DNA of 64,000 nucleotides from Bacteroidota bacterium (GTDB lineage: Bacteria > Bacteroidota > Bacteroidia > Flavobacteriales > Flavobacteriaceae), in contig JBDKFO010000002.1 in the NCBI GenBank assembly GCA_039798665.1, positions 3,990 to 67,989 on the forward strand, written 5' to 3'. Numbering within the stretch: position 1 is the stretch's first letter; each line of letters opens with the position of its first letter. Made by a program: the position numbers and the translations under genes. The notes beneath the pieces are model-generated. The model was not told the DNA's origin, did no database searches, and worked only from the letters and a program-made list of their open reading frames with translations. This document shows positions 1,787 through 47,263 of this stretch, one piece after another.

Positions 1787-3055
1787 ATGAAAGCATTTTA
1801 TTATACCGTTATTTTTTTAGGCCTTTCTGCTCTTGCAGAAGCCCAAGTAGGCATTGGTACATCAACTCCACAAGGAGCCTTGGACATTGTTTCGCCAGCC
1901 GGAGCACCCAATGGGCTTTTGATTCCCCGCGTTCCATTAACCATTGGTACTACGAATGCTTTGCCTCTGGTTGCGCCTACCATTTCTGAAATGATTTACA
2001 ACACCAGTACCGTAGGAGGCGCTACACCTGGTTTTTACTATTGGAGCGGGACAAGCTGGGTGCGTTTTGTAACAGGAACGGTAGCGGGTTGGTTAACCAC
2101 AGGAAATGCAGGATTAACTGCAGGCACAAATTTTATAGGCACTACCGATGCGGTTGATGTATCATTTAAAAGAGGAAATGTATTGTCTGGCTATATTGGC
2201 GCTAGCAGTACGGCCTTTGGTGTCGGCGCCTTGTCAGGCGGAGCCGCCACAACGAGTACAGCTTTTGGGAACAATGCCTTATCAGTGAGTACGGGAGCAA
2301 ATAATGTAGCTTTTGGTCAAAATGCCTTGCGCGATTGTGCAGGTTCCGCTACCTATAATACAGCGGTGGGAACCAATGCCTTAAAGGGAATCAACAATGC
2401 CGCTTCTCAATACAATACTGTGCTTGGCGGAGAAGCCATGGGGCTCACCACAGGTGACGTGAGCAATTGTACTGCCGTGGGTTACCAAGCGCTCTATTCC
2501 ATCAGTGGAGCAGGGGCTGCCCGAGGGTTAAACAATACGGCATTGGGATACCAGGCTGGGAGTACTATTACGACGGGTGAAAACAACATTGCAATTGGAT
2601 ACCAAGCCCAAGTTCCAGGAATTACATCCAACAACCAAATACAGCTAGGGAATAGCGCCATCAGTTTGGCCCGATGTCAAGTGGCCTGGACGTTGAGTTC
2701 AGATCAGCGATTTAAAAACAACATCAAAGACTCCGAATTGGGGCTGCAATTCTTGCAAACACTTCGTCCAGTTTCTTATTTGCGCACCAATGACGCGCAA
2801 GCCAAAACCGAATATGGGTTTATAGCACAAGAGCTTCAAACCGCGTTTGCCAAGGCCGGCCATGAAAATAATGGTGTAATATCGGCAGATGATTCTGGTA
2901 AGTTGGGCGTGCGCTACAACGATTTTATCTCGATATCGGTTAAAGCTATTCAGGAACAACAACTTCAAATAGAAGCCCTGCAACAAGCCAATGCCGAGTT
3001 GCAAAAAGTGAATGCGGCTATTTTGGAACGCTTAGCCAAATTGGAACGTCAGTAA
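1787..3055 (+). CDS. Tail-fibre-like surface protein with C-terminal peptidase S74 (intramolecular chaperone) domain
   Basis: Signal peptide MKAFYYTVIFLGLSALAEA; QVGIGTxxP head motif; repeated NTAxGxxAL beta-roll units; SSDQRFKNNI...LRPVSY...GFIAQE S74 signature followed by a coiled coil. ATG 1787 preferred over TTG 1757. Confidence 0.85.
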   Translation: MKAFYYTVIFLGLSALAEAQVGIGTSTPQGALDIVSPAGAPNGLLIPRVPLTIGTTNALPLVAPTISEMIYNTSTVGGATPGFYYWSGTSWVRFVTGTVAGWLTTGNAGLTAGTNFIGTTDAVDVSFKRGNVLSGYIGASSTAFGVGALSGGAATTSTAFGNNALSVSTGANNVAFGQNALRDCAGSATYNTAVGTNALKGINNAASQYNTVLGGEAMGLTTGDVSNCTAVGYQALYSISGAGAARGLNNTALGYQAGSTITTGENNIAIGYQAQVPGITSNNQIQLGNSAISLARCQVAWTLSSDQRFKNNIKDSELGLQFLQTLRPVSYLRTNDAQAKTEYGFIAQELQTAFAKAGHENNGVISADDSGKLGVRYNDFISISVKAIQEQQLQIEALQQANAELQKVNAAILERLAKLERQ

Positions 3056-3434
3056 CGTCCTAATTTATCTATTCCAAAAAGCGTTTCGCAATTCAATAAA
3101 CGTAAAAAGAAGTGCTAATTTTTAGAAGATCTGTTTTTTTTGTTTGTAATAAATATGATTTTCACAACCAATTAACCATACCGTTGGATAAAATTAACCA
3201 AGCAAAAACACAACATTAGTACAACAACGCAAAAACCCCGTTTTTTGCCAACTCCCAAAAACCCTTAGATTCTTCCCTATTTTTAACTATATCGTTTGCG
3301 TACGCTTCAATTTTAAGGAAAGAATTTGCCATCCATTTTTTGTATAGTTTATATATAGCCGGGATAAAATTTTAAAACTTATCCCATGGTCTATATTTGA
3401 GATTCTATACATGTAACCAATTAAAAACCAAACT

Positions 3435-6400
3435 ATGATGAAAAAAATTCTTTTATGTTTATTCCTAATGACTATTTCATTAGGGTATGCCCAACCTGGT
3501 GCATCGCCAACAGATCCTCCCGCAAGAAATGATTGGGATGTGAAATCTGTGTATAGCGATTCGTACACCAATCAAACTGGGGTGAGCTTTTTGAATTTTG
3601 GTGGAAGTACCATCAATGCCGATTACACACCACCAGGAGGAAATCCTGCTAAGTATTACACAGGGCACAGTTATTCTGGGATACAAGTAAACACGGCAGG
3701 AAGTCTAAACGTATTACAGATGACGCACTTACACTTTGATGTGTATTCGCCCAACTTTAGTTCGATGGCCATCAAATTAGAATCGTCTACAGGAGCTTTC
3801 AGAGAGCTTGCCGTAGCTGGTTCTGTTGTGCCTTCTGCCTCAACTAGAGACCAATGGATCAGTGTTGATTTGGCGTTGAGCACTTATGACACAGGCAACA
3901 TTTTAACAAGTTTAAAATATATAGTACCGGTAACATTTGGTCAAAATGCTACTTTATACATTGATAATGTTTATTTCTACAGACCGGCTACTACACAGCC
4001 CCCAACTTTAGGTGATTTTACAGTTCCTTCGCAATTAATAGGCGCGGCACCAATTACCCTAACTGCACCTACTTCTAATAGTGGTGGAGCATTTACTTTT
4101 ACCAGCAGCAATACAGCAGTAGCAACAATTAGCGGAACTACATTAACTATTGTAGGGCTTGGTTCATCAAACATTACAGCCACACAAGCAGCTGATGGCC
4201 CTTATGGCACTGGATCGGCAATTGCTGTTTTCAACGTAACACCCAATGCTGCACCTGTTCCACCAGCCCGTAATACCTGGGATGTAATTTCCTTGTATAG
4301 CGGTGCTTACACAAATCTTGCCAACACAAATTTTAATCCGAACTGGGGTCAATCTGGATTTGGAGCTTTTTCGGCTACTACTTTTGAAGGCGATGATGTG
4401 TTGCAATATCCTAACTTGAATTACCAAGGTACTGAAACAGCTGCCGATGTAAATGCAATTGCAATGACCAAAATGCACATCGATATTTTCTCGCCAACGT
4501 TAACGTCAATTCGTTTGTCGTTAATTAAAACGACTGGTGGCGCAACTGAAAAACCAATCACTTTGCCTTTAACTGCAGGCGTTTGGAACAGTTTTGATAT
4601 CGATTTAACCTCAGCCACATTTACCGGCTTGGATTTTACTAAAATCCGTCAACTTAAATACGACCAACCTTCTGCGGCAGGACAAACCCTAGTAGTAGAT
4701 AACATTTATTTCTGGAGAGATGCTACTACGCTTCCGCCAACTTTAGGTGCTTTTACCGTTGCTCCACAATTAACAGGTGCAGCGCCATTTGAATTAACTG
4801 CTCCAACTTCAAATAGTAATGGTGCATTTACGTTCAGCAGTAGCAATACTGCGGTGGCCACCATAAGCGGTACAACCGTAACGATTGTAGGAGTAGGTTC
4901 ATCAGTAATTACAGCAACACAAGCTGCCGATAGCGGCTATGGAGTAGGAATTGCTACTGCTACACTTGATGTTACGCCTACAGCAGCACCAACACCACCC
5001 GCACGAAACACCTGGGATGTAATCTCGTTATATAGCGGATCGTACACCAATGTGTCGGGAACCAACTTCAATCCAAACTGGGGACAGTCAGGATTTGGTG
5101 CTTTTTCAACGGCTTCTTATGAAGGCAATGAAGTATTGCGTTATCCAAACTTAAACTACCAAGGTACCGAAACGGCTGCCGATGTAAATGTTTCAGCCTT
5201 GAACAAATTGCACATCGATTTGTTTTCGCCTACCTTAACTTCTGTGCGTTTATCGTTGATTAAAGTTACTGGTGGCGCTGTTGAAAAACCAATCACTTTG
5301 CCTTTAACTGCAGGTGTTTGGAATAGTTTTGATATTGATTTAACCTCAGCCACGTTTACAGGCTTAGATTTTACCAAAATCCGTCAACTTAAATACGACC
5401 AGCCTTCTGCTGCCGGACAAACTTTGTCGGTGGACAACATTTACTTTTGGAGAGATGCTACCACGCAACCACCTACTTTAGGAGCCTTTACAGTGGCTGC
5501 CCAATTATTAGGCGCTGCTCCGTTTGAATTAACTGCACCGACTTCAAATTCTGCTGGAGCATTTACCTTTAGCAGTAGCAATACAGCAGTAGCAACCGTT
5601 AGTGGAACTACTGTAACTGTAGTTGGAGCTGGTTCTACAACCATTACTGCTACACAAGCCGCTGATGGTGGGTATGGAACAGGCACGGCAACGGCTACAC
5701 TTGATGTAACGCCTGCTGCGGCTCCAACCCCTCCGGCAAGAAATGCATGGGATGTGATTTCCTTATACAGTGGAGCGTATTCGCCTTCGTCTGCGCCAAA
5801 CTGGGGTGCAGCTGGAACTGATGTGTCTTTATCTGGTGATACTGCACGTTTTTTCAACGGATTTACTTTGGCTCGTTTGGCATTTGCTTCGACCAATGTA
5901 TCCGAGATGACGCACATGCATATCGATGTATACTCGTTGAATCAAAATCCATTGTGGTTTGAATTAAATGGAAACAGACGCGTAACCAACACACCTGTAA
6001 ATGGATGGGTAAGCGTTGATATTGCTTTATCTGAATTTGTGGGATTAAACCTGACAAACATTAGCTTTTTTGATTTAAACAATCCTACTGGCGCTTCTGC
6101 TCCAGTGAAACAAGTGTATTTAGATAACATCTATTTCTACAGAGACGCAACTTTGCAACCACCAACAATCGGTACATTAACAGTTCCAACTGGTGTAACC
6201 ATGGGTGATGCACCATTTGTGTTGACTAATCCAACAACAAATAGCTCAGGAACGTTCTCGTATACCAGCAGCAATACGGCGGTAGCTACAATTAGCGGAA
6301 ATACCGTGACTATTGTAGGTGGTGGTTCTACAACCATTACTGCTACTGTTGCTACTGATGGCGTTTATGGACCAAGAAGTACAACTGCTACGTTAAATGT

Positions 6401-28053: not shown

Positions 28054-28716
28054 ATGGCAAATACGGCATTACAGTCATCCATTGGAAAAAAAGTCGCCAT
28101 GGCACTTTCGGGACTTTTCTTAATCTCCTTTTTATCTCTGCATTTCTTCATCAATTTGATGTCGGTTTTTAGCGCAGAAACCTTCAACGAAATGTCCCAT
28201 TTTATGGGTTACAATCCAATTATTCAATTTGTAATGCAGCCCATCTTAGTGGCTGGAGTGGTGTTTCACTTCGTGATGGGTTTTGTATTGGAATTAAAAA
28301 ACCGCAACGCACGACCGCAAGGCTATGCCAAATACAATGGTGCAGCCAATGCGTCTTGGGCCTCTCGCAACATGATTATTTCAGGAATTGTAGTGTTGGC
28401 TTTCTTGGGCTTACATTTTTATGATTTCTGGGTACATGAAATAACGTACAAGTACATTGAACAAGCTCCCGTAGAAACCGATCGTTATTTTGCCGAGTTG
28501 GTTGCTAAATTTCAAAATCCCATGCGTGTAGGCATTTACAGTTTGTGTTTTGTCTTGCTTGCAGTGCATTTGTGGCACGGATTTACCTCTTCGTTTCAAT
28601 CGGTAGGATTCAACAATAAATATTCAAAATCAATCCAAAAATTAGGGTATGCTTTCGCGATTGTTGTTCCATTTGGATTTGTTTTTATTGCATTGTTTCA
28701 TTTTTTTAATCAGTAA
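28054..28716 (+). CDS. sdhC: Succinate dehydrogenase/fumarate reductase cytochrome b subunit
   Basis: [13 protein letters not shown]; five hydrophobic helices with haem-ligand His residues; first gene of the sdh operon. Confidence 0.92.
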
Positions 28717-28727
28717 CAGTTTCGAGT

Positions 28728-30737
28728 ATGAAATTAGATTCTAAAATACCTCAAGGCCCGCTATCAGAAAAATGGACCGCTTATAAAGATCACTTAAAAT
28801 TAGTAGCACCCAATAACCGCCCCAAAATTGATATTATTGTGGTAGGTACTGGATTGGCAGGCGCTTCGGCTGCTGCTTCTTTGGGCGAAATGGGCTACAA
28901 TGTAAAAGCATTTTGCTTTCAAGATTCTCCTAGACGTGCGCATTCTATTGCCGCACAAGGAGGAATCAATGCTGCAAAAAATTACCAAAATGACGGCGAT
29001 AGTACGTATCGCTTGTTTTACGATACTATCAAAGGGGGCGATTACCGTGCCCGTGAAGCCAACGTACACCGTTTGGCCGAAGTGTCGAGCAATATCATTG
29101 ACCAATGTGTGGCACAAGGGGTTCCTTTTGCCCGTGATTACGGCGGATTGTTAGACAACCGTTCATTTGGCGGAACCCAAGTACAACGTACTTTTTATGC
29201 CGCAGGACAAACGGGCCAACAGTTGTTGTTGGGCGCTTACTCGGCCTTGTCTAGACAAGTAGGGTTGGGACGCGTAGAGATGTTTACCCGACATGAAATG
29301 TTGGATTTAGTTAAAGTAGACGGCAAAGCCCGTGGAATTATAGCCCGTAATTTAGTTACTGGAGAATTGGAGCGTCATTCAGCACATGCTGTGATCATTG
29401 CATCAGGAGGATATGGAAATGTGTATTTCCTTTCTACGAATGCCATGGGAAGCAACGTAACTGCTGGCTGGAAAGTACACAAACAAGGGGCCGCTTTTGC
29501 CAATCCGTGTTTTGTGCAGATTCACCCAACCTGTATTCCAGTACACGGAACTAATCAAGCCAAATTGACTTTGATGTCGGAGTCCCTTCGTAATTCGGGT
29601 CGTATTTGGGTACCCAAGAAAAAAGAAGATGCCGAGGCCATTCGTGCAGGTAAATTAAAACCAACCCAATTGGCTGCTGAGGATCGCGATTATTTTTTAG
29701 AGCGCAAATACCCAGCTTTTGGAAACTTAGTACCGCGTGACGTAGCCTCAAGAGCGGCCAAAGAAGTGTGTGACGAAGGACGAGGAATTGAAGCTAACGA
29801 TACCAACGAAGGCGTGTATTTGGATTTCTCAACTGAGATCCAAAACAAAGGAAAACAAGCCGCTTACGCCAAAGGAAATCACCACCCATCAGCCGAAGAA
29901 ATTACAGCCTTAGGCAAACAGTGGTTGAAAGAAAAGTATGGCAACTTGTTTACCATGTACCAAAAAATCACCGATGAAAATCCGTACGAAACCCCAATGA
30001 AAATTTACCCTGCGGTGCATTATACTATGGGTGGTGTTTGGGTGGATTACAACTTACAATCTACTATTCCAGGTTGTTTTGTGGCAGGAGAAGCCAACTT
30101 CTCTGACCACGGAGCCAACCGTTTGGGTGCCTCTGCTTTGATGCAAGGATTAGCCGACGGTTATTTTGTGTTGCCATACACCGTTTCAGATTATTTGGCG
30201 GATGAAATTCGCACCGGTAAAATATCTACCGATTTGCCTGAATTTACAGAAGCCGAAAACCGAGTAAAATCGACCATTGAAAAATTCTTGTCCAATAAAG
30301 GAACCAAATCAGTAGACCATTTTCACAAACGCTTGGGCCGCATCATGTGGAACAAAGTAGGAATGGGCAGAAACGAAGCCGGTCTAAAAGAGGCAATTGC
30401 TGAAATTGCTGCGTTGAAAGAAGAATTTTTCAAAGACGTATATGTTCCAGGAAGTGCCGATGAGGTAAACCAAGAATTAGAAAAAGCACTTCGTGTGGCT
30501 GATTTTATTGATTTGGGGCAATTGATGGCGAAGGATGCCTTGCAGCGCAACGAATCGTGTGGAGGTCACTTCCGCGAAGAGTACCAAGACGCCGAGGGTG
30601 AAACCTTGCGTGACGACGAAAACTTCAAGTTTGTGGGCGCTTGGGAATACCAAGGCGATGACATCAACAATGAGGTATTACACAAGGAAGCATTGGATTA
30701 TGAATTTATCAAAATAGCAGCGAGAAATTATAAATAA
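28728..30737 (+). CDS. sdhA: Succinate dehydrogenase/fumarate reductase flavoprotein
   Basis: [42 protein letters not shown]. Confidence 0.96.
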
Positions 30738-30792
30738 AATAGGCATTAGGCATTAGCCAATAATGACTAGTAATTTACCTAAATATACACCC

Positions 30793-31554
30793 ATGAGTGC
30801 AGCAAAAAATATCAATATCAACCTTAAAATTTGGCGCCAGAAAAACGCGAAATCAAAAGGGAAAATGGAAACATACAAATTAGACAATGTTTCTACTGCC
30901 AGTTCATTTTTAGAAATGTTAGATCAATTGAACGAACAATTGATCAACGAGCAAAAAGAACCCATTGCCTTTGACCACGATTGCCGCGAGGGAATTTGCG
31001 GAATGTGTTCGTTATTCATTAACGGAAGAGCGCACGGACCAGATACCGGAGTTACTACCTGTCAATTGCATATGCGTATGTTTAACGATGGCGATACCAT
31101 TTATGTGGAACCTTGGAGAAGCCGTGCTTTTCCGGTGGTAAAAGACTTAATGGTTGACCGAAGTGCATTTGATCGTATCCAACAAGCGGGAGGATTTGTA
31201 TCAGTAAACACTTCTGGAAGAACCATTGATGCCAACGCCACTCCCATTCCAAAAAACGATGCAGACAAAGCGTTTGAAGCGGCAGCTTGCATTGGATGTG
31301 GAGCTTGTGTAGCGACTTGCAAAAACGGATCAGCCATGCTATTTGTGGGTGCCAAAGTTTCGCAATATGCATTGTTGCCTCAAGGAAAAGTAGAAGCTAC
31401 TAACCGCGTGTTAAACATGGTACGCCAAATGGACGAAGAAGGATTTGGAAACTGTACCAATACCGGTGCTTGCGAGATTGAATGTCCAAAAGGAATTTCT
31501 TTAGAAAACATTGCCCGCATGAACCGCGAGTACTTGAAAGCCAGCATCATCTAA
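30793..31554 (+). CDS. sdhB: Succinate dehydrogenase/fumarate reductase Fe-S subunit
   Basis: [20 protein letters not shown] and [12 protein letters not shown] clusters. Start ATG 30793. Confidence 0.95.
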
Positions 31555-38639: not shown

Positions 38640-40184
38640 ATGGCAAAACAAGAAGATTTATTTAAAAATGTCGTTTCGCACGCAAAAGAATACGGATTTA
38701 TTTTTCCGTCGAGCGAAATTTATGACGGACTAAGTGCAGTATATGATTACGCACAAAATGGAGTGGAGTTAAAGAAAAACATCCGCGAATACTGGTGGAA
38801 ATCAATGGTGCAAATGCACGAAAACATTGTGGGGCTTGATGCCGCCATTTTGATGCATCCCACCACTTGGAAAGCTTCGGGCCACGTAGACGCCTTTAAT
38901 GATCCGTTGATTGACAACAAAGATTCCAAAAAAAGATACCGCGCCGACGTCTTGATTGAAGACTACGCCGAAAAATTAAACCTCAAAGCCAAAAAAGAAA
39001 TCGAAAAAGCCCGCGAGCGTTTTGGTGAAAGCTTTGACGAAGAACAATACAAAACCACCAATCCCCGCGTGATGGAATACCTTTCTAAGGAAAGAGAGAT
39101 TCTTGAGCGCATGGGTCGTTCTTTAGGAAACGGTGATTTAGAAGATGTAAAAGCGCTCATTGAAGAACTCGAAATTGCCGATCCCGAAACCGGTTCGCGC
39201 AACTGGACCGAGGTGCGTCAGTTTAACTTGATGTTTGGCACCAAACTGGGAGCTTCTGCCGATAGCGCGATGGACTTATACTTGCGACCAGAAACAGCTC
39301 AGGGAATTTTTGTCAACTTTTTGAATGTACAAAAATCGGGTCGCATGAAGATTCCGTTTGGAATTGCACAAACTGGAAAGGCCTTTAGAAATGAAATCGT
39401 AGCACGTCAGTTTATTTTTAGAATGCGCGAATTTGAGCAAATGGAAATGCAATTTTTTGTGCGTCCAGGCGAAGAAATGAAGTGGTATGAATACTGGAAA
39501 ACCACTCGTTTAAATTGGCACTTGTCTTTGGGCTTGGGAAAAGAAAATTACCGTTTTCATGACCACGAAAAATTAGCGCATTACGCCAATGCCGCTGCCG
39601 ATATTGAATTCAATTTCCCTTTTGGGTTCAAAGAATTAGAAGGCATTCACTCTCGCACCGATTTTGACTTGAAAGCACATGAGGAGTTTTCAGGTAGAAA
39701 GATGCAGTATTTTGACGCCGAGCTCAATCAAAATTACACGCCTTATGTAGTCGAAACCTCTGTTGGATTAGACCGTATGTTCTTGGCCGTTTTTGCCACT
39801 GCCTTAAAAGAAGAAGTTTTAGAAGATGGTTCAACGCGCACCGTATTGCAGTTGCCTTCGGTGTTGGCTCCTACCAAAGCAGCCGTGTTGCCCTTGGTCA
39901 AAAAAGATGGCTTACCCGAATTGGCTCACGAAATCATCGACGAACTCAAATGGGATTTCCATGTAACCTATGACGAAAAAGATGCAGTAGGTCGTCGTTA
40001 CCGACGTCAAGATGCGTTAGGCACGCCATTTTGTATTACAGTTGATCATCAATCCTTAGAAGACAAAACCGTAACCATTCGTCACCGAGACAGCATGAAG
40101 CAAGACCGCGTCGCGATTACCGAATTGAAAGCCATCATAGAAAATGAGGTTTCCATGAAAAATTGGTTGCTAAAAACGAAATAA
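38640..40184 (+). CDS. glyQS: Glycine--tRNA ligase (homodimeric alpha2 type)
   Basis: SEIYDG, LRPETAQGIF, GKAFRNEI, FRMREFEQME, GRRYRRQD. Start ATG 38640. Confidence 0.96.
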   Translation: MAKQEDLFKNVVSHAKEYGFIFPSSEIYDGLSAVYDYAQNGVELKKNIREYWWKSMVQMHENIVGLDAAILMHPTTWKASGHVDAFNDPLIDNKDSKKRYRADVLIEDYAEKLNLKAKKEIEKARERFGESFDEEQYKTTNPRVMEYLSKEREILERMGRSLGNGDLEDVKALIEELEIADPETGSRNWTEVRQFNLMFGTKLGASADSAMDLYLRPETAQGIFVNFLNVQKSGRMKIPFGIAQTGKAFRNEIVARQFIFRMREFEQMEMQFFVRPGEEMKWYEYWKTTRLNWHLSLGLGKENYRFHDHEKLAHYANAAADIEFNFPFGFKELEGIHSRTDFDLKAHEEFSGRKMQYFDAELNQNYTPYVVETSVGLDRMFLAVFATALKEEVLEDGSTRTVLQLPSVLAPTKAAVLPLVKKDGLPELAHEIIDELKWDFHVTYDEKDAVGRRYRRQDALGTPFCITVDHQSLEDKTVTIRHRDSMKQDRVAITELKAIIENEVSMKNWLLKTK

Positions 40185-40203
40185 CGTTACCTATAAATTA
40201 TTC

Positions 40204-40235
40204 AATGGCTCGCTGAAAAGGGAGCCATTTTTTTT
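40204..40235 (+). terminator. glyQS terminator
   Basis: aatggctc...gagccatt followed by a T-run. Confidence 0.8.
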
Positions 40236-40377
40236 GCTATAAACACAGAAATTCCCCCTATAATTGTTAATAATTATTGAATTTCTTGTGCATAAGTCTA
40301 GCATTTTCCGTTGGCTAATGGTCTAATTTAGCCCTTGACTAGGTCTGTTTTGTTGATAAAGCCTAGCCTGCAAGCAA

Positions 40378-41271
40378 ATGAAGCATACTTTCATCATTGT
40401 GGACGACCAGCCCGAAAGTATTGAAAATGTGATGGCCATCGCCAGTCATTTTCAGCAGCTGGTTTGTTTGGCCTCGGCCACTACCTATGAAGATGGCTTG
40501 AATGCTATTTTAGAGCACAGCCCGCAGTTGGTGTTCTTGGAAATTTCCCCCGATGACAAAAAAAGCAATTTATCCTTGCAACTCATCAACGAATTGCACC
40601 GGTTTTTGCGCATTGTTCCCGAGATCATTGTCATTACCAAAAACAAAGACTTGGCTTTTGAAGCCATGAAATACGAGGTGTTGGATTATTTACTGAAACC
40701 ACTGGATGTAAATGAACTGCGCAAAACGATTTTAAAATACGAGAAGTTTGTGTTTGACAACCCGCGACTCTTCACCCAACCCAAAACATCCCGAACGGCG
40801 ATAGAGGTGGTAGAGCCCGAGATCATCTCGTCACCGCCTGCTGCAGAATCTCCGGATTCACAGAATTCGACCTCGGCCAAAATCATTGAAGCCATACCTG
40901 GGCTTTCATTGGCCCAAGAAAAACCCTTGATCATCTGTGTGAAATCCTATGGAGATTACCGTTTTATCGAAGCACGTGATATTTGTTATTTGCAGGCCGA
41001 CAACAATTCTACCGATATTCACTTGAATTCAGGCGAGATGATTACCGCCTTTAAAACGCTCAAACACTTTGAGAGCGTATTGACTAATCCTTTTGTGCGC
41101 ATTCACAACAGCTATATTGTAAATGTTGATTATGTGTCGCGCATCCACACCGGAAACTCGGTATGCTACATTAAAAATACCACTACCAAACTGCCATTTT
41201 CCAAGTCTTATAAGGAAAATATTGACGGAATTATTGCCGCAATTACCAATGGCAATTATTTAGAAATCTAA
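40378..41271 (+). CDS. LytTR-family response regulator with atypical receiver (phospho-Asp replaced by Glu)
   Basis: IIVDD...PQLVFLEI...DYLLKP receiver; low-complexity linker; LytTR domain (DICYLQADNNST...TLKHFE...FVRIHNSYIVN). Confidence 0.9.
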   Translation: MKHTFIIVDDQPESIENVMAIASHFQQLVCLASATTYEDGLNAILEHSPQLVFLEISPDDKKSNLSLQLINELHRFLRIVPEIIVITKNKDLAFEAMKYEVLDYLLKPLDVNELRKTILKYEKFVFDNPRLFTQPKTSRTAIEVVEPEIISSPPAAESPDSQNSTSAKIIEAIPGLSLAQEKPLIICVKSYGDYRFIEARDICYLQADNNSTDIHLNSGEMITAFKTLKHFESVLTNPFVRIHNSYIVNVDYVSRIHTGNSVCYIKNTTTKLPFSKSYKENIDGIIAAITNGNYLEI

Positions 41272-41309
41272 AAAATGCCATCCACTCGGATTTGGCTATC
41301 ATTCACTAT

Positions 41310-41339
41310 CAAACGGCTACTATCTACCACAAACGCCTA
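41310..41339 (+). promoter_or_regulatory. Direct-repeat pair upstream of the peptide gene, candidate LytTR site
   Basis: CAAACGGCTA (41310) and CAAACGCCTA (41330): 9/10 identity, 20-bp period. Confidence 0.4.
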
Positions 41340-41444
41340 AAAACAGTAGATTACAAGAGACATGCTATCTAGTTTTACACCGTGAATCACTGACGATTTA
41401 CATGAAACACGAAATAAAACACACATAAATAAACGTCTCAAATT

Positions 41445-41690
41445 ATGAAAAAAACAGTATTAACTTTAGGATTGTTTTCATTGATGATGATCTTAACCTC
41501 GTTCACTAGCCCAGAGATAGGGGGAACACAAAGTGCTCCAAGAAAATTCTCTGAACAAAATGATAATTTAGTATTAGAAATTGGAGGAACACAAAGTGCT
41601 CCAAGAAGAATGTTTGAAATTGGAGGAACACAAAGTGCTCCAAGAAAAGTATTTGAAATTGGAGGAACACAAAGCGCTCCAAGAAAATAA
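41445..41690 (+). CDS. Secreted repeat-peptide precursor (4 x EIGGTQSAP-R[K/R]), putative signalling peptide
   Basis: Sec-type signal MKKTVLTLGLFSLMMILTSF; repeats at aa 24-34, 45-55, 58-68 and 71-81; synonymous differences between copies; own terminator. Confidence 0.85.
   Translation: MKKTVLTLGLFSLMMILTSFTSPEIGGTQSAPRKFSEQNDNLVLEIGGTQSAPRRMFEIGGTQSAPRKVFEIGGTQSAPRK
41514..41687 (+). repeat. Four 33-bp coding repeats (last three at a 39-bp period)
   Basis: ga(g/a)at(a/t)gg(g/a)ggaacacaaag(t/c)gctccaagaa(a/g)a at 41514, 41577, 41616 and 41655. Confidence 0.95.
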
Positions 41691-41714
41691 ATAGTTTACC
41701 ACTAGATAATACAG

Positions 41715-41742
41715 AGCTTCCAATTTATTGGAAGCTTTTTTT
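41715..41742 (+). terminator. Terminator after the peptide gene
   Basis: agcttccaa-ttta-ttggaagct-tttttt. Confidence 0.8.
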
Positions 41743-41787
41743 ATTTTATATATTTTACATACTTTAGCCAAAATACATTTTTTGCTG

Positions 41788-43827
41788 TTGAAATATATTT
41801 ATTACATATTATCTGCCTATTTAATTTTTAGTTGTAATAAAACTAATAATTCTAATGCAATTGAAAATAATGCTTCGCTAGATAGTCTTTCAATTTATTT
41901 AGCTAATACTCAAAACGAAAATAAACCAAGTGCTAATCGAATAAAAAGCAGTGATAAAGCATTTAAGTTATTAAAAAGTCAAAAAAACACCTCGTATACA
42001 AGAGAACAACTTTATAATATTGCTAAATTTTATTACGAAAGTAAACTGGATTTTAAATTTAAAAACAGTGTTTTCATTTTAATTGAAAACTCTAAAAAGG
42101 AAAATGATTTCAAATTACTTTCTAAATCATATAATTTATTAGGGAATCATTATATTAATTTAAGTAAAAACGATAGTGCATATTATTATTTGCTGAAATC
42201 AGAGAAACTTTTCATTAAAGAAAAAGACAGTGTTTCATTAGGAAAAAACTATGTTGACAAAGCTTTCGTACAGTTATATGAAAATGATTATTCAGGTTGT
42301 GAACAATCTTCGATTACTGCACTAAATTTTCTTAAAAACAATTCAGACAAACAACTAGAATACGACGCTTATAATTTAATTGGAATTAGCGCCAATGAAT
42401 TAAAGAGTTATGATAATGCTATAGATTACCATAATAAAGCACTCAATATAGTTATCCAGAATAATATAGTTTCAGAATTTCATTATGAAGCTAGTTCAAA
42501 GAACAATATAGGAGTTGTTTATCAAAACATAAATAAACATAAAAAAGCAATTGAAATTTTTCAGAGTGCATTAAAAGAAAAAAATCTCTTAGTTGACAAT
42601 CCAAGCTTATATGCTATTATAACCGATAATTTAGCTTATTCTAAGTTTAAGACAAAAGATTTTAATTCATTACCAGCATTGTTTTATGAATCTTTAAGTA
42701 TTAGAGAAAAATATCAAATGTCTTCAGGTATAATTGCTAATAAAATTCATCTCTCTGAATTTTATTCATTTAAAAATGACACGATAATGTCTCAGAATTT
42801 TGCAATTGAGGCTTTAAAACTTGCAAAAAAAACAAAAATTTCTGGTGACATGTTAGCTTCTTTAAGGCAATTATCACTTGTTGAACACGTAAATTCAGCT
42901 AAATATTCTAAAGAATACATTAAAATCAGTGACAGTATTCAATTGGAGGAGCGTAAATCAAAAGACAAATTTGCACGTATTGCTTTTGAAACTGATGAAA
43001 TTATATTGGAAAAAGACAAATTAGCCGAACAAAATAGAAGCTTGTTGTACTTTTTTGTGGGCACTTTATTTGTAGGGTTATTGCTATTTGTGATTCGAAC
43101 ACAGCGTGCCAAAAACCGAGAATTGGTTTTAAAACAGCAGCAACAAAAAGCCAATGAAGACATCTATAATTTGATGATTTCTCAGCAAGCCACAATTGAA
43201 GAAAGTCGCGAAAAAGAAAAGAAAAGAATTGCACAAGAACTGCATGATGGGGTATTGGGCCGATTGTTTGGTGCCCGATTAAATTTGGATAGTTTAAACC
43301 GATTTACCGACGAGGAAGCCATTGCCAACCGATTTAATTACCTCAATGAACTTAAAAATATTGAGCAGGACATCCGGGAAATCTCACACGATTTGAATCG
43401 CGAAAAATACGTGCTGATTAATAATTTTGTGGCCATTGTGAATAATCTTATTGAAGAACAGAAAAACGCATTCAGTGCTTCGGTGTCTTGTGTAATTGAT
43501 GAAAAAATAAAATGGGATCAAATAGCCAATACGGTTAAAATTAACCTATACCGCATGTTGCAGGAATCGTTACAAAACTGTAATAAGTACGCCAATGCTT
43601 CAAAAATTGAGATCTTATTTGAATTACAGGAAGATTGCATTTATTTTAGCGTAGCGGATAATGGTATTGGATTTGATGTAAAATCAAAGAAAAAGGGGAT
43701 TGGTCTTCAAAATATGATCGCTCGAACCACCGAATGCAATGGGCAACTCGAAGTGATTTCTCAAAAAGGTTCGGGAACAAGCATAAACATTAAGGTACCC
43801 TTAACCGAACAAAAGGCAGAACACTAA
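41788..43827 (+). CDS. TPR-sensor histidine kinase 1 (HisKA_3 + HATPase)
   Basis: Likely TTG start 41788 (MKYIYYILSAYLIFSC, paralleling kinase 2; ORF track starts at 41728). TPR-like helices (AYNLIGISANELKSYDNAIDYHNKAL), one TM segment, H-box RIAQELHDG, LYRMLQESLQN, DNGIGF, GIGLQNM. Confidence 0.9.
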   Translation: MKYIYYILSAYLIFSCNKTNNSNAIENNASLDSLSIYLANTQNENKPSANRIKSSDKAFKLLKSQKNTSYTREQLYNIAKFYYESKLDFKFKNSVFILIENSKKENDFKLLSKSYNLLGNHYINLSKNDSAYYYLLKSEKLFIKEKDSVSLGKNYVDKAFVQLYENDYSGCEQSSITALNFLKNNSDKQLEYDAYNLIGISANELKSYDNAIDYHNKALNIVIQNNIVSEFHYEASSKNNIGVVYQNINKHKKAIEIFQSALKEKNLLVDNPSLYAIITDNLAYSKFKTKDFNSLPALFYESLSIREKYQMSSGIIANKIHLSEFYSFKNDTIMSQNFAIEALKLAKKTKISGDMLASLRQLSLVEHVNSAKYSKEYIKISDSIQLEERKSKDKFARIAFETDEIILEKDKLAEQNRSLLYFFVGTLFVGLLLFVIRTQRAKNRELVLKQQQQKANEDIYNLMISQQATIEESREKEKKRIAQELHDGVLGRLFGARLNLDSLNRFTDEEAIANRFNYLNELKNIEQDIREISHDLNREKYVLINNFVAIVNNLIEEQKNAFSASVSCVIDEKIKWDQIANTVKINLYRMLQESLQNCNKYANASKIEILFELQEDCIYFSVADNGIGFDVKSKKKGIGLQNMIARTTECNGQLEVISQKGSGTSINIKVPLTEQKAEH

Positions 43828-44489
43828 TGGAAAAGGCATTACAAATTTTATTTATAGACGATCATCCTACCATAATTGAAGGGTATAAAAGTATTTTGAA
43901 AGAAAAATACACCGACGATCAGCTCGAAGTTTTCGCAGCGTACAGCAGTGAGTATGGGTATGATAAACTTTTTCATTCCAACCGAGTATATGACATCGTG
44001 GTTTTGGATATTGGATTGCCGGCCTATTTACCCCAAAAAATTGAATCGGGTGAAGACCTAGCTTTTTTGATCCAAAAACATTTTCCTAAAACCAAAATTT
44101 TGATTTCCACCTCGCATTTGGAAGCTTTTATTTTATACAACATTGTAAAAAAAGTAAATCCGGATGGCCTGATGATTAAAAGTGATTTTAAATCGGAAGA
44201 GTTTATTTTGGCTGTGGATAAAGTACTGCAAGGGGAGGTTTATTACAGCCAAACCGTTCGAAATGCCATTAAAGAAGTGGCCGTACAAAACGATGCGCTA
44301 GATTCCATAGACCGCCGTATTGTGTCGCTGCTATCAAAAGGGATTAAAACCAAGAACATCCCCTCGCATTTGGGTATATCATTGAGTGCAGTCGATAAAC
44401 GGAAAGCCCAAATCAAGGACTTTTTCAATATCGTCAAAGGAACAGATGAAGACATTATTCGAGAGGCCACCAAGCGCGGATTAATCTAA
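43827..44489 (+). CDS. Response regulator, NarL/LuxR-like
   Basis: FIDDHP...VLDIGLP (Asp intact)...IKSD; C-terminal HTH; start overlaps the kinase 1 stop (TAATG). Confidence 0.9.
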   Translation: MEKALQILFIDDHPTIIEGYKSILKEKYTDDQLEVFAAYSSEYGYDKLFHSNRVYDIVVLDIGLPAYLPQKIESGEDLAFLIQKHFPKTKILISTSHLEAFILYNIVKKVNPDGLMIKSDFKSEEFILAVDKVLQGEVYYSQTVRNAIKEVAVQNDALDSIDRRIVSLLSKGIKTKNIPSHLGISLSAVDKRKAQIKDFFNIVKGTDEDIIREATKRGLI

Positions 44490-44568: not shown

Positions 44569-46578
44569 ATGAAGTATATTTGGATAGGAATAGCCCTGCT
44601 TTTATTTTTTGGATGTAAAAAACAAGAAAACGATATTAGTGAAAGGGAACAAATAAAAACCCTTTTATTAAGCGGTTCAAACAGAAAACTATCTTTTAAA
44701 TCAAGAAATTTTCTTAATGACAAGGTGTACCTTAAATTAAATAATCATAAAAATGATTCTATTAATAGAGAAAATTATTTTGAATTAGCATGGAATTATT
44801 TTACAATTAACGACATTGAAAAATTTAAAAAAATTACTGATGAAGTATTTTTATTAAGTAGGCAGAGTAAAAGTAAAAATCACTTAGCTCAATCAAATAA
44901 TTTGTTAGGTATTTACTATGAAACAAAAAGTATAAATGATAGTGCTTTTTATTATTATCTCAAAGCTGAAAAGATCTATAAAGCTGCAAATTTAGAAAGT
45001 AAATTATGTAGTATATATAGGAATAAAGCACTAGTTCAATACTATGTTAATGATTATTTGAATGCAGAAAAATCATTGGTTGATGCATTAATCATTGCAA
45101 AAAAATACAAACTAACTTACGATATTTTTAAGATTTATTCTTCTTTAGGTATAATATCTTACGATCAAGATGATTTTAATAAAGCAAATGAGTTTTTTGC
45201 TAAAGCTGAAATTATACTTAATGAAAATAGCTCACTATTTGACAACAATGAAATAGCGTTCTCTTGTTGCAATAAAGGGGTTAATTACTTTAGTCAAGGT
45301 AAAATTTTAAATTCTATAACAGAGTTTAATAAAGCATTAATTCTTCCTAACATAAATATAGAATATCCAGATATATACACAAGAGTTCTAGATAATTTAG
45401 CAAAATCATTTTTATATAATTCTTCTTATCAAAATTCTTTTTTGTTATTAAAAGAATCAGAAAAAATCAGAAAAAAATATAAAATTGTTTTTGGCAAAAA
45501 CTTCAACCGTCTTTATCTCTCCCACTATTATGCCGCAATACACAACTTGCCTAAGGCCAATGCCTATGCATTAGAAGCATTGGCCATCTCCAAAAATTTT
45601 AAGGCACCAAAAGACCAATTGCTGTGCTTGAAGCAGCTCATTAAAATCAATCCCCAAAAAGCCCTGCACTACAGCAGTCAGTACATTTCCTTGTCGGACA
45701 GCATGCAAAACATGGAGCGTCAAACGCGCAATAAATTTGCCAAAATTGCCTTTGAAACCGATGAAATTACCAAAGAAAAAGAAGAAGTCGAAGAGCAAAA
45801 CTCCATTATTTTATGGGTGTGCATTGCTATTTTTGTTATTGCGGTTTTGCTGTTTGTAATTGGGAGACAACTATTAAAGCAAAAAGAATTTCGCTTGCAG
45901 CAAGTACAGCAAAAAGCCAACGAAGAAATTTACAACCTGTTGTTGGCCCAACAAAACAAAATTGATTCAGCACGCAATAACGAAAAAGAACGCATATCCA
46001 AAGACCTGCATGACGGGGTGCTCAACCGCTTGGCCTCAACGCGCATGAACCTCGATTCTTTGCATAACCAGCCTAGCTCAGAGAATGTGCAAAAATCAAA
46101 AATCCTGATTGATGGCATCCAAGATGTCGAGAAAGAAATTCGCAACATCTCACATGATTTAAACAAAGAAGTATTTGCCAAATCGGTGAGCTTTGTCAAG
46201 GTAATTAGCACTTTTATGGAAGATCAATTTGAGGCAACGAAAACGCGAAATTTCTTAGAATTTGATGCCAAAATAAACTGGGATCTTATTCCAGGTTTGG
46301 TAAAAATTCATTTATACAGAATTGTACAAGAAGCAGTACACAACATCAATAAACACGCCCGAGCCCAATCGATCATTATAAATTTTTTGGCCATAGATGG
46401 CGGAATTAAATTGGAAATATTTGATGATGGGGTAGGATTTTTGTTAAACAAAAAGAAAAAAGGAATAGGTTTGCAAAACATTTACAGTCGCACCGCCTCC
46501 TGCAATGGAACGGTCTTAATAGAATCGCAAAAAGGAATAGGAACTACCCTTAAATTGTTTGTTCCGTATCAAGAATAA
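44569..46578 (+). CDS. TPR-sensor histidine kinase 2 (HisKA_3 + HATPase)
   Basis: MKYIWIGIALLLFFGC; TPR-like helices; TM segment; H-box RISKDLHDG, LYRIVQEAVHN, DDGVGF, GIGLQNI. Confidence 0.9.
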   Translation: MKYIWIGIALLLFFGCKKQENDISEREQIKTLLLSGSNRKLSFKSRNFLNDKVYLKLNNHKNDSINRENYFELAWNYFTINDIEKFKKITDEVFLLSRQSKSKNHLAQSNNLLGIYYETKSINDSAFYYYLKAEKIYKAANLESKLCSIYRNKALVQYYVNDYLNAEKSLVDALIIAKKYKLTYDIFKIYSSLGIISYDQDDFNKANEFFAKAEIILNENSSLFDNNEIAFSCCNKGVNYFSQGKILNSITEFNKALILPNINIEYPDIYTRVLDNLAKSFLYNSSYQNSFLLLKESEKIRKKYKIVFGKNFNRLYLSHYYAAIHNLPKANAYALEALAISKNFKAPKDQLLCLKQLIKINPQKALHYSSQYISLSDSMQNMERQTRNKFAKIAFETDEITKEKEEVEEQNSIILWVCIAIFVIAVLLFVIGRQLLKQKEFRLQQVQQKANEEIYNLLLAQQNKIDSARNNEKERISKDLHDGVLNRLASTRMNLDSLHNQPSSENVQKSKILIDGIQDVEKEIRNISHDLNKEVFAKSVSFVKVISTFMEDQFEATKTRNFLEFDAKINWDLIPGLVKIHLYRIVQEAVHNINKHARAQSIIINFLAIDGGIKLEIFDDGVGFLLNKKKKGIGLQNIYSRTASCNGTVLIESQKGIGTTLKLFVPYQE

Positions 46579-46591
46579 TAACTACAAAATT

Positions 46592-47263
46592 ATGGCACAA
46601 TTGGTTCGTGTATTAATGGTTGACGACCATCCTTTTATTATTGAAGCGTATAAAAATGCGATTAAAGGCTACAATACCAAGGGGCTATATGAATTTGAGA
46701 TTACCCAAGCCAAAGACTGTAAAACAGGCTATGAAGCCATTATCAACGAAGACAACCCACACTATGACATTGCCTTTTTTGATTTGAGTATGCCCACCTA
46801 CGAAGAAAAAGGGATTCAATCGGGTGAAGATTTGGCTTTGTTGGTCAAAGAACGCCTCCCCGCTTGTAAAATCATCTTGCTCACCATGCATTCGGAGATG
46901 CTCAAAATCAATACCATCATCAAAAACATCAACCCCAATGGGCTTGTGATCAAAAATGATTTAACCTTTGATGAATTGTTGTTGGCTTTTGATAAGATCT
47001 TAAAAGACGAAAATTACTACAGCCAAACGGTTGTGAAATTAGTAAGTCAAATTCCGTTTGATTCCAATGAAATAGATGTGTTTGACAAACAATTATTGTT
47101 TCATTTGTCAAAAGGAGTACCAAACGCCGACTTGGCACAATATGTTCCTCTTGCAGCTGCGGTCATAGAAAAACGCTTGACAAATTTAAAAGCGGTACTC
47201 GAAATTCCCCACGGCACCCACGCCGAATTGGTTCAAGAGGCCAAAAACAAAGGGATCATTTAA
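46592..47263 (+). CDS. Response regulator, NarL/LuxR-like
   Basis: MVDDHP...FFDLSMP (Asp intact)...IKND; degenerate C-terminal HTH; paralogue of 43827-44489. Start ATG 46592. Confidence 0.88.
   Translation: MAQLVRVLMVDDHPFIIEAYKNAIKGYNTKGLYEFEITQAKDCKTGYEAIINEDNPHYDIAFFDLSMPTYEEKGIQSGEDLALLVKERLPACKIILLTMHSEMLKINTIIKNINPNGLVIKNDLTFDELLLAFDKILKDENYYSQTVVKLVSQIPFDSNEIDVFDKQLLFHLSKGVPNADLAQYVPLAAAVIEKRLTNLKAVLEIPHGTHAELVQEAKNKGII

Follow-up and report, generated by a model that had tools for sequence, protein, structure and literature searches.

A family of tandem-repeat propeptides in Flavobacterium diversifies jointly with the sensor of an adjacent TPR histidine kinase

The precursor gene and the adjacent kinase

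The window analyzed here is a 64,000-nucleotide stretch of a Flavobacteriaceae genome (GenBank assembly GCA_039798665.1, contig JBDKFO010000002.1, forward-strand positions 3,990 to 67,989), and coordinates count from its first letter unless another contig is named. An 81-residue open reading frame (ORF) at 41445-41690 encodes a signal peptide followed by four copies of an 11-residue unit, and the next gene downstream encodes a sensor histidine kinase with a tetratricopeptide repeat (TPR) sensor, termed HK1. The order on the + strand is glyS, a LytTR-family regulator, the peptide gene, HK1, the response regulator RR1, the second kinase HK2 and the response regulator RR2, followed by thiL and lepA on the - strand. 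The 81-residue protein reads MKKTVLTLGLFSLMMILTSFTSP-EIGGTQSAPRK-FSEQNDNLVL-EIGGTQSAPRR-MF-EIGGTQSAPRK-VF-EIGGTQSAPRK-stop. An earlier note on this DNA had described the ORF as a signal peptide with four EIGGTQSAP cores that end in dibasic sites, and this layout is borne out in every checkable detail. The features of the precursor gene are:

41445-41690, + strand: precursor gene with tandem peptide units (81-residue ORF)
41445-41507, + strand: signal peptide, residues 1-21 (n-region MKK, hydrophobic core, c-region T-S-F-T)
41514-41546, + strand: unit 1, EIGGTQSAPRK
41577-41609, + strand: unit 2, EIGGTQSAPRR
41616-41648, + strand: unit 3, EIGGTQSAPRK
41655-41687, + strand: unit 4, EIGGTQSAPRK, with the stop codon directly after it

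The amino terminus is predicted to be a Sec-type signal peptide consisting of MKK, a hydrophobic core and TSF[T/A/S]. The -3/-1 rule was used to infer the cleavage site, and signal peptidase I likely cuts after S-F-[T/A/S]. Tandem Repeats Finder reports a period of 39 (3.0 copies, 92% matches, score 197) at 41572-41687, which corresponds to the last three units; unit 1 lies outside this call with DNA that is too diverged and a protein sequence that is identical. The synonymous codon differences between copies pointed out in the earlier note (GAG ATA GGG versus GAA ATT GGA; AGT versus AGC) are confirmed and are consistent with selection at the level of the peptide.

Codon usage was compared across 12 independent core copies from three alleles (the window and loci L043 and L045). 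The core EIGGTQSAPR contains at least 14 synonymous codon variants distributed over 8 of its 10 codons and 0 amino-acid changes, compared to a neutral expectation that about three quarters of the changes are nonsynonymous. Position 11 of the unit is K or R only, and the two-residue spacers vary (MF, IF, VF, AF, AL, AC). Copies that differ synonymously only indicate selection on each unit, beyond mere recent duplication. The signal-peptide codons of the window and L043 differ at 10 synonymous and 0 nonsynonymous sites, which shows that this segment is also conserved at the protein level. Frameshift-tolerant repeats in related strains, which the earlier note had named as a sign against its proposal, were not found: no frameshifted repeat copy was seen among the relatives, and more than 150 genomes keep the frame open. 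The sequence evidence thus identifies 41445-41690 as a real gene for a predicted exported tandem-repeat precursor.

Copy number in the family ranges from 1 to 6 and is always in frame. In clusters at 90% identity, the window type is 81 or 68 residues long (4 or 3 copies) and the Flavobacterium lacustre type is 94, 80, 66, 66 or 52 residues long (4, 3, 2, 2 or 1 copies). This variation among close relatives fits the earlier suggestion that repeat number tunes the dose. Each allele uses one core variant throughout its copies (GGAS, GGGS, GSGS or GGSS; NKKVD or NRKVD).

The kinase gene begins shortly after the precursor gene and has the following organization:

41785-43827, + strand: HK1, with a lipoprotein signal (LIFSC), periplasmic TPR domain, transmembrane helix, HisKA_3 and HATPase_c domains (Pfam)
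41836-42909, + strand: periplasmic TPR superhelix of HK1 (residues ~18-375)
43039-43095, + strand: transmembrane helix of HK1 (residues 419-437)

The lipobox Cys17 of HK1 is nearly invariant, and the combination of a lipoprotein signal with a single transmembrane helix indicates that the ~360 residues between them face the periplasm. AlphaFold2 models residues 33-350 as a superhelix of about eight TPR pairs (predicted local distance difference test score 85-96). The best structural matches of the sensor model are the TPR domains of LGN/Pins/GPSM2 (TM score 0.66-0.79), and the matched structures hold extended peptides in their groove. The cytoplasmic part of HK1 has structural matches to DesK and VraS. 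A comparison of the sensor sequence with the PDB returned generic TPR matches only (kinesin light chain, designed CTPRs).

Joint diversification of the repeats and the HK1 sensor

The repeats, the intergenic region and the HK1 sensor domain form one hypervariable block:

41510-42830, + strand: hypervariable block (repeats, intergenic region and HK1 sensor domain)

Its limits are seen in the comparison with L040, a metagenome contig that matches the window in gene order, is identical to it in the signal peptide and carries the core QESRGSRR. Proteins of the window and L040 are 92% (LytTR regulator), 93% (RR1), 94% (RR2) and 96% (ThiL) identical, and within HK1 the transmembrane and kinase part is 92% identical and the sensor 38% identical. 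The HK1 sensor of L043, which has the same TQSAPRK core as the window, is 71% identical. At the DNA level, the window and L040 are 85-94% identical up to 41422; identity drops to 35-62% from the repeats to ~42830 at the end of the sensor, and returns to 80-90% beyond this point. A second trough in DNA identity covers the sensor of HK2, and the HK2 sensor groups the four loci compared (the window, L040, L043 and L047) in the same way as peptide type does. The other reading frames were read by hand to examine QESRGSRR as a frameshift of TQSAPRK, and no simple frameshift was found.

The pattern recurs in a second lineage. L049 (NNTAPKP) and L050 (AQTAPRS) are 100% identical in the kinase part and the regulator and 69% identical in the sensor, and their DNA identity falls to 21-79% solely across the repeats and the sensor. 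Identity of the window sensor reaches 52-59% with the xxTAP-type alleles of this more distant lineage (84% identity in ThiL) but only 38-41% with the QESR-type alleles found in near relatives of the window. A partial Mantel test on 21 loci relates peptide distance to sensor distance given kinase-domain distance (r = 0.54, p = 1e-4), compared to a weak converse correlation (r = 0.15, p = 0.045). Two sensors resemble each other according to the peptide type of their loci and not according to background relatedness. The same signature marks the comQXP and agrBDC pherotype loci. This joint diversification, the fixed LytTR/TPR-kinase context and the promoter box described below are the main evidence, and all three were absent from the earlier note.

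The precursor family, its locus and its regulatory signals

A search of 5.8 billion proteins found 34 relatives of the precursor, all from Flavobacterium genomes or freshwater metagenomes and all but one annotated 'hypothetical protein'. The F. lacustre homologue WP_269685964.1 (L022), a 94-residue repeat peptide, has the RefSeq name '3-oxoacyl-ACP reductase', an annotation error that is probably due to its Gly-rich repeats. The amino terminus MKKxxLTxGLFSLMMxLTSFT is almost invariant among the relatives, and residues M1, K2, K3, F11, T18, S19 and F20 are invariant in 23 members. The units vary by lineage yet are uniform inside each gene. Units behind EIGG are TQSAPRK, TQNAPRQ, SNTAPKP and QESRGSRR, and further units of the family include LVGTQSTGGNKKVD, IIGGTATGGNVKVD, RSQVPSF and RSTTGE, among others. 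The mature parts contain no Cys or Trp and 19% Gly. The stop codon directly follows the last unit in the window clade and in the KKVD-type alleles, and some relatives have a short carboxy-terminal tail (P0002, P0010, P0013-type).

The earlier note had proposed Kex2-like cutting at dibasic sites. This does not hold as a principle of the family: RK and RR ends belong to the window clade, and units elsewhere end in KKVD, KKPDLA, PSF, TGE, LGEF, APKP and others. Judged from the unit ends, a dibasic Kex2-like cut is possible in the window clade (RK/RR) and in the RR, KK and RKK types.

A hidden Markov model (HMM) of the first 27 precursor residues was used to survey the distribution of the family, and a match was counted when it lay in a single open frame of 60-150 residues. 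The precursor family is present in 167 of 301 Flavobacterium species genomes, or 139 of 233 when good-quality genomes are considered, which places the share of species with the gene at ~55-60%; none of 249 other genera of Flavobacteriaceae matched. Twelve genomes without an HMM match were inspected, and 7 of these also lack the LytTR orthologue. Three of the 4 inspected loci among the remaining HMM-negative ones have another small exported ORF in the slot of the peptide gene: two copies of ENGDGSAQPRKKPDLA in G018, a product with the carboxy terminus KKRD in G003, and a lipobox peptide with the carboxy terminus KPKR in G004 (locus L056). A weak match in G031 (E = 0.024; L039) has neither a LytTR gene nor a kinase gene adjoining and was treated as a false positive. 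One locus carries a decayed cassette (L048; metagenome-assembled genome GCA_016718345.1, contig JADKDN010000009.1), with an aberrant carboxy-terminal tail on the peptide, no LytTR gene called and a kinase of 371 residues only from which the TPR part is gone; ligand and sensor were possibly lost jointly.

The other genes of the cassette in the window are:

40378-41271, + strand: atypical LytTR-family response regulator, 297 residues (Pfam LytTR 2.6e-16, Response_reg 6.8e-09)
43827-44489, + strand: RR1, NarL/LuxR-type response regulator, part of the RR1-HK2 insertion
44569-46578, + strand: HK2, paralogous TPR-HisKA_3 kinase with a hypervariable sensor at ~44620-45520
46592-47263, + strand: RR2, NarL/LuxR-type response regulator

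The order in other Flavobacterium genomes (n = 18) is a comF-like gene, glyS, LytTR, peptide, HK1 orthologue, RR2 orthologue and thiL, and in 18/18 the HK1 orthologue directly follows the peptide gene. This adjacency persists in L031, although the peptide gene is 8 kb from the LytTR gene there. RR2 is the orthologue of the regulator found directly behind HK1 in most Flavobacterium genomes and is likely the output regulator. RR1 and HK2 are found between HK1 and RR2 only in the window, L040, L043 and L047, and their absence from the other genomes identifies the pair as a clade-specific insertion. The window RR1 is nearer to L040 (93%) than to L043 (83%) and HK1 shows the reverse, which indicates that the locus is a recombination mosaic. 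L049 and L050 have two extra genes between glyS and the LytTR gene (4116-5547 in L049), a P63C-domain gene (weak match) and a 163-residue ORF without matches, which may be a mobile or phage-derived insertion.

The EIGG that precedes each core in the window clade could be read as a cleavage site for a C39-peptidase ABC exporter, and multi-core precursors of ribosomally synthesized and post-translationally modified peptides (RiPPs) exist, so that a double-glycine (GG)-leader bacteriocin or a RiPP with modified cores had to be weighed. This origin is very improbable. In place of an amphipathic GG leader, the amino terminus has the two Lys and the hydrophobic core of a classical Sec signal, and GG itself is unconserved in the family, with DLVG, DIIG, DISG and SIDG at that position. 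Pfam and NCBIfam scans that included the GG-motif precursor families gave zero matches to the precursor peptide. The mature parts offer neither Cys nor Trp. The conserved neighbourhood, whose flanks are the housekeeping genes glyS, the comF-like gene, thiL and lepA, contains neither an immunity gene nor a gene for a modifying enzyme or a C39 transporter.

The same genome contains a paralogous module on contig C11 (1377-4618), in the order LytTR gene, lipobox ORF, terminator and TPR-HisKA_3 kinase. Its genes, in C11 coordinates where given, are:

LytTR regulator of 237 residues, with Thr at the acceptor position
2372-2542: small ORF of 56 residues with a lipobox (MKPNFLVKLFLLTIVCVSLNSC...PPPQSR)
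2600-4618: TPR-HisKA_3 kinase

The layout of the small C11 protein resembles the lipobox version in G004 (L056).

Promoter elements were located in an alignment of 24 loci that covered 200 bp of sequence upstream of the peptide gene. The regulatory features of the window are:

41279-41341, + strand: conserved upstream box with three direct repeats (24-locus alignment)
41370-41378, + strand: TAGTTTTAC promoter element, nearly invariant in the 24 loci
41713-41746, + strand: intrinsic terminator between the peptide gene and HK1 (stem 41713-41738 of 9-11 bp, plus T-run)

The box consists of repeats of the CATYYAC type at an exact 21-bp spacing: CATCCAC (41279-85), CATTCAC (41300-06) and TATCTAC (41321-27). 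AgrA, ComE and PlnC/D of Gram-positive peptide systems bind direct repeats with 21-bp phasing, and the 56-bp box is a candidate LytTR binding site. A position weight matrix of the 56-bp box scores 74 bits at the 41279 site and 6.5 bits at the next best position in the 2.31-Mb genome, and a regulon search with this matrix returned no second site in the genome. The distance from the start of the third repeat to TAGTTTTAC is 49 bp, and the element fits the TAnnTTTG type, which we take to be the Bacteroidota -7 promoter element (sigma-A promoter consensus). The C11 module has GTTACT twice, 21 bp apart (2128 and 2149), and TAAATTTG at 2196, the same geometry as the window box. The terminator described in the earlier note at 41715-41742 is essentially the stem and T-run found here. 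A hairpin and T-run follow the stop codon in 24/24 loci with differing stem sequences, and the conserved design is therefore a short peptide transcript with a terminator of its own. An Rfam scan of 40000-44000 gave sub-threshold PyrG and Phe leader matches only, which overlap the terminator hairpin and were rejected.

In all well-aligned orthologues of the LytTR regulator, the phospho-acceptor Asp is replaced by Glu ('LVFLE'), and the window protein has an unusually long low-complexity linker of ~70 residues. By this substitution, the regulator is classed as a pseudo-receiver regulator that is predicted not to be conventionally phosphorylated, and the probable partner of the kinase in signalling is the NarL-type regulator rather than the LytTR protein.

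Tandem repeats homogenize by slippage or recombination without selection, and the array could be a fast-evolving, disordered periplasmic filler or protease substrate with no signalling role, its repeats kept alike by unequal crossing-over. The sensor of HK2, which is hypervariable although it lacks a peptide gene of its own, would fit such neutral turnover. This explanation is improbable. The synonymous-only divergence among copies reflects selection on each unit, and a filler would not be expected to have strict genus-wide synteny, a dedicated and conserved promoter box and a conserved terminator. The sensor also tracks peptide type after control for the kinase domain, and the HK2 sensor groups likewise. 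The analysis shows that the gene is real, that each unit is under selection and that gene order is fixed, and it documents the promoter box, the terminator and the shared hypervariability of peptide and sensor.

Possible modes of action and comparison with known systems

The propeptide is probably the cognate exported ligand of HK1, whether it acts as a released peptide or in cis. The more specific reading, that the multi-copy propeptide yields a released, pherotype-like ligand of the adjacent TPR kinase, has about an even chance of being correct given the sequence patterns. We infer its binding, cleavage, outer-membrane crossing, regulatory wiring and output genes as follows. The atypical LytTR regulator would bind the three 21-bp-phased repeats and drive a short, strongly terminated transcript. 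Signal peptidase would take off the conserved signal peptide, and periplasmic or surface proteases would cut the array into identical peptides (EIGGTQSAPRK, with or without the 2-residue spacer), so that copy number would equal peptide dose per transcript. The peptide would sit in the concave groove of the 8-TPR superhelix and alter the output of HK1 to the NarL-type regulator; HK2 is possibly also a receptor of the repeat unit (11-14 residues). Peptide and sensor would diversify jointly into mutually specific types, or pherotypes, and this joint diversification suggests a strain-discriminating signal that is read between cells.

Release is favored by units that are separately selected with free spacers between them, by a copy number of 1-6 and by a last unit that ends at the stop codon in some members. 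It is also favored by the pherotype-like diversification, which is not normally seen in private circuits. An extension of this reading is tentative and falls somewhat short of an even chance: that the cut peptides leave the cell and are read by the periplasmic TPR kinase of neighbours, with pherotypes separating kin from non-kin, in what would be the first peptide-pheromone system of Bacteroidota and a new architecture among diderm bacteria.

Several observations weigh against a released signal. A Sec signal alone delivers the precursor to the periplasm only, no exporter is linked to the locus, and a 1.1-1.5 kDa peptide exceeds the usual porin limit, which leaves an intercellular role without a route. 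The family shows no conserved cleavage motif, and the locus has no linked protease. The missing acceptor Asp means that the classical loop from kinase to phosphorylated LytTR protein to peptide gene cannot run as it does in Gram-positive bacteria. The C11 module encodes a lipobox small protein that is probably tethered, which favors a cis-acting partner, and an uncut ligand could be accommodated by LGN-type TPR domains, whose partners are long extended chains. A test for charge complementarity of peptides and sensors over 21 loci gave no correlation (rho 0.12, p 0.6). The peptide gene and the sensor are also adjacent, and recombination blocks alone could link them; the sharp edges of the hypervariable block at the signal peptide and the transmembrane helix argue that something maintains it.

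These points bring in a second form of the ligand, in which the protein would remain uncut in the periplasm of the producing cell, or anchored there by its signal, as a partner of the kinase. The chain of repeats would lie along the TPR groove as a multivalent cis inhibitor or co-sensor, and its level or degradation would set kinase activity, as with CpxP-CpxA, ExoR-ExoS and MgrB-PhoQ. Sec export ends in the periplasm, where the HK1 sensor sits, and the nearest folds, LGN/Pins, take extended chains of 25-45 residues. The length and unusual conservation of the hydrophobic stretch would be expected of a helix that makes a specific contact, the small protein of the C11 module would be tethered by its lipobox, and a cis partner would require neither an exporter nor a protease at the locus nor passage of the outer-membrane barrier. 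The patterns of variation make this form the less likely one all the same. Private cis modulators are normally conserved, whereas ligand and sensor are hypervariable here and their allele classes cross species. Copy number changes from 1 to 6 without a change in the repeat number of the sensor, spacers evolve freely while units are fixed, and S-F-[A/T/S] is a plausible signal peptidase I site, contrary to a permanent anchor. The three model systems likewise encode a small exported protein beside a two-component system and act from the periplasmic side, an analogy that may extend to the repeat precursor, but CpxP, ExoR and MgrB are conserved, folded or membrane-embedded proteins without tandem units that show no joint diversification with the sensor.

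The released-ligand reading has its closest functional parallels in Gram-positive bacteria. The comQXPA locus of Bacillus and the agrBDCA locus of Staphylococcus have a bounded hypervariable segment made up of the signal gene and the sensor part of the kinase. In these loci, as in Flavobacterium, the catalytic kinase part and the regulators are conserved and allele classes are shared across related lineages. They differ in that ComX and the autoinducing peptide are modified by ComQ and AgrB, which are encoded inside the variable block, and no modifying enzyme is present here; their sensor is a polytopic membrane domain in a Gram-positive host, compared to the soluble TPR sensor of HK1. ComCDE, BlpRH and PlnABCD share a small peptide gene beside a LytTR regulator and upstream direct repeats at 21-bp phasing. 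The LytTR protein in Flavobacterium is without the acceptor Asp, the kinase is HisKA_3/TPR and not HPK10, and Sec, not a GG-leader ABC transporter, is the export route.

Yeast alpha-factor (MFalpha1) and other Kex2-processed polyproteins have a signal peptide, tandem identical peptides, short spacers and a last copy at the stop codon, and by analogy copy number may serve as dosage in both. The eukaryotic Kex2/Ste13/Kex1 pathway, the restriction of dibasic boundaries to one clade here and the lack of homology set the two apart.

The earlier note had considered this arrangement uncommon in bacteria. It is less unusual than assumed: the Phr propeptides of Bacillota and their phages carry 1-4 tandem pheromone copies that are matured by extracellular proteases (PMC11343458). 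The Rap-Phr/RRNPPA systems (PMC11343458; PMC5199041) resemble the Flavobacterium cassette in an unmodified, Sec-exported propeptide of 50-120 residues whose gene adjoins the receptor gene, in a TPR-fold receptor, and in rapid diversification of peptide and receptor. Processing of 1-4 (near-)identical copies by signal peptidase and then further proteases would be a further likeness. There is no sequence homology, and the units are 11-14 residues long here and 5-10 there. A membrane histidine kinase carries the TPR domain here as its periplasmic sensor, which makes Opp import unnecessary, and the HK1 fold matches LGN/Pins and designed TPRs, not the Rap, NprR, PlcR, Rgg, PrgX or AimR receptors. 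The host is a diderm member of the Bacteroidota, which poses the outer-membrane problem, and the cassette contains LytTR and NarL-type regulators.

Full-text literature searches found no such peptide system described for Flavobacterium or Bacteroidota. The cassette looks like a known kind of system, peptide-receptor signalling with pherotype structure, in which the non-homologous precursor family, the periplasmic TPR kinase as presumed receptor and the diderm host are new. Peptide cell-cell signalling is, to our knowledge, regarded as a Gram-positive speciality, and we know of no signals for many of the TPR-type sensor kinases of Bacteroidota. If the ligand assignment is true, it would give the first ligand type for these ligand-less kinases (FimS-like proteins, for example). 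The cassette provides a defined receptor domain and a candidate ligand that can be synthesized. Its natural allele pairs (TQSAPRK versus QESRGSRR; NNTAPKP versus AQTAPRS) lend themselves to specificity tests and its unique promoter box to a reporter, and culturable Flavobacterium species make the question directly testable. Fish pathogens belong to this genus, as do abundant species from freshwater, from soil and in association with plants, and strain-specific signalling in the genus would bear on biofilm, gliding and community behaviour. Should the protein prove to be a cis-acting kinase partner, a repeat chain that co-evolves with a TPR sensor would still represent a new type of modulator.

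Elsewhere in the window, two ORFs of 220 and 669 residues at 28054-30737 have the same lengths as RR1 and HK2 and were suspected to be a second two-component pair. They are succinate dehydrogenase genes, and 28054-31554 is a succinate dehydrogenase operon that encodes cytochrome b, the flavoprotein and the Fe-S subunit.

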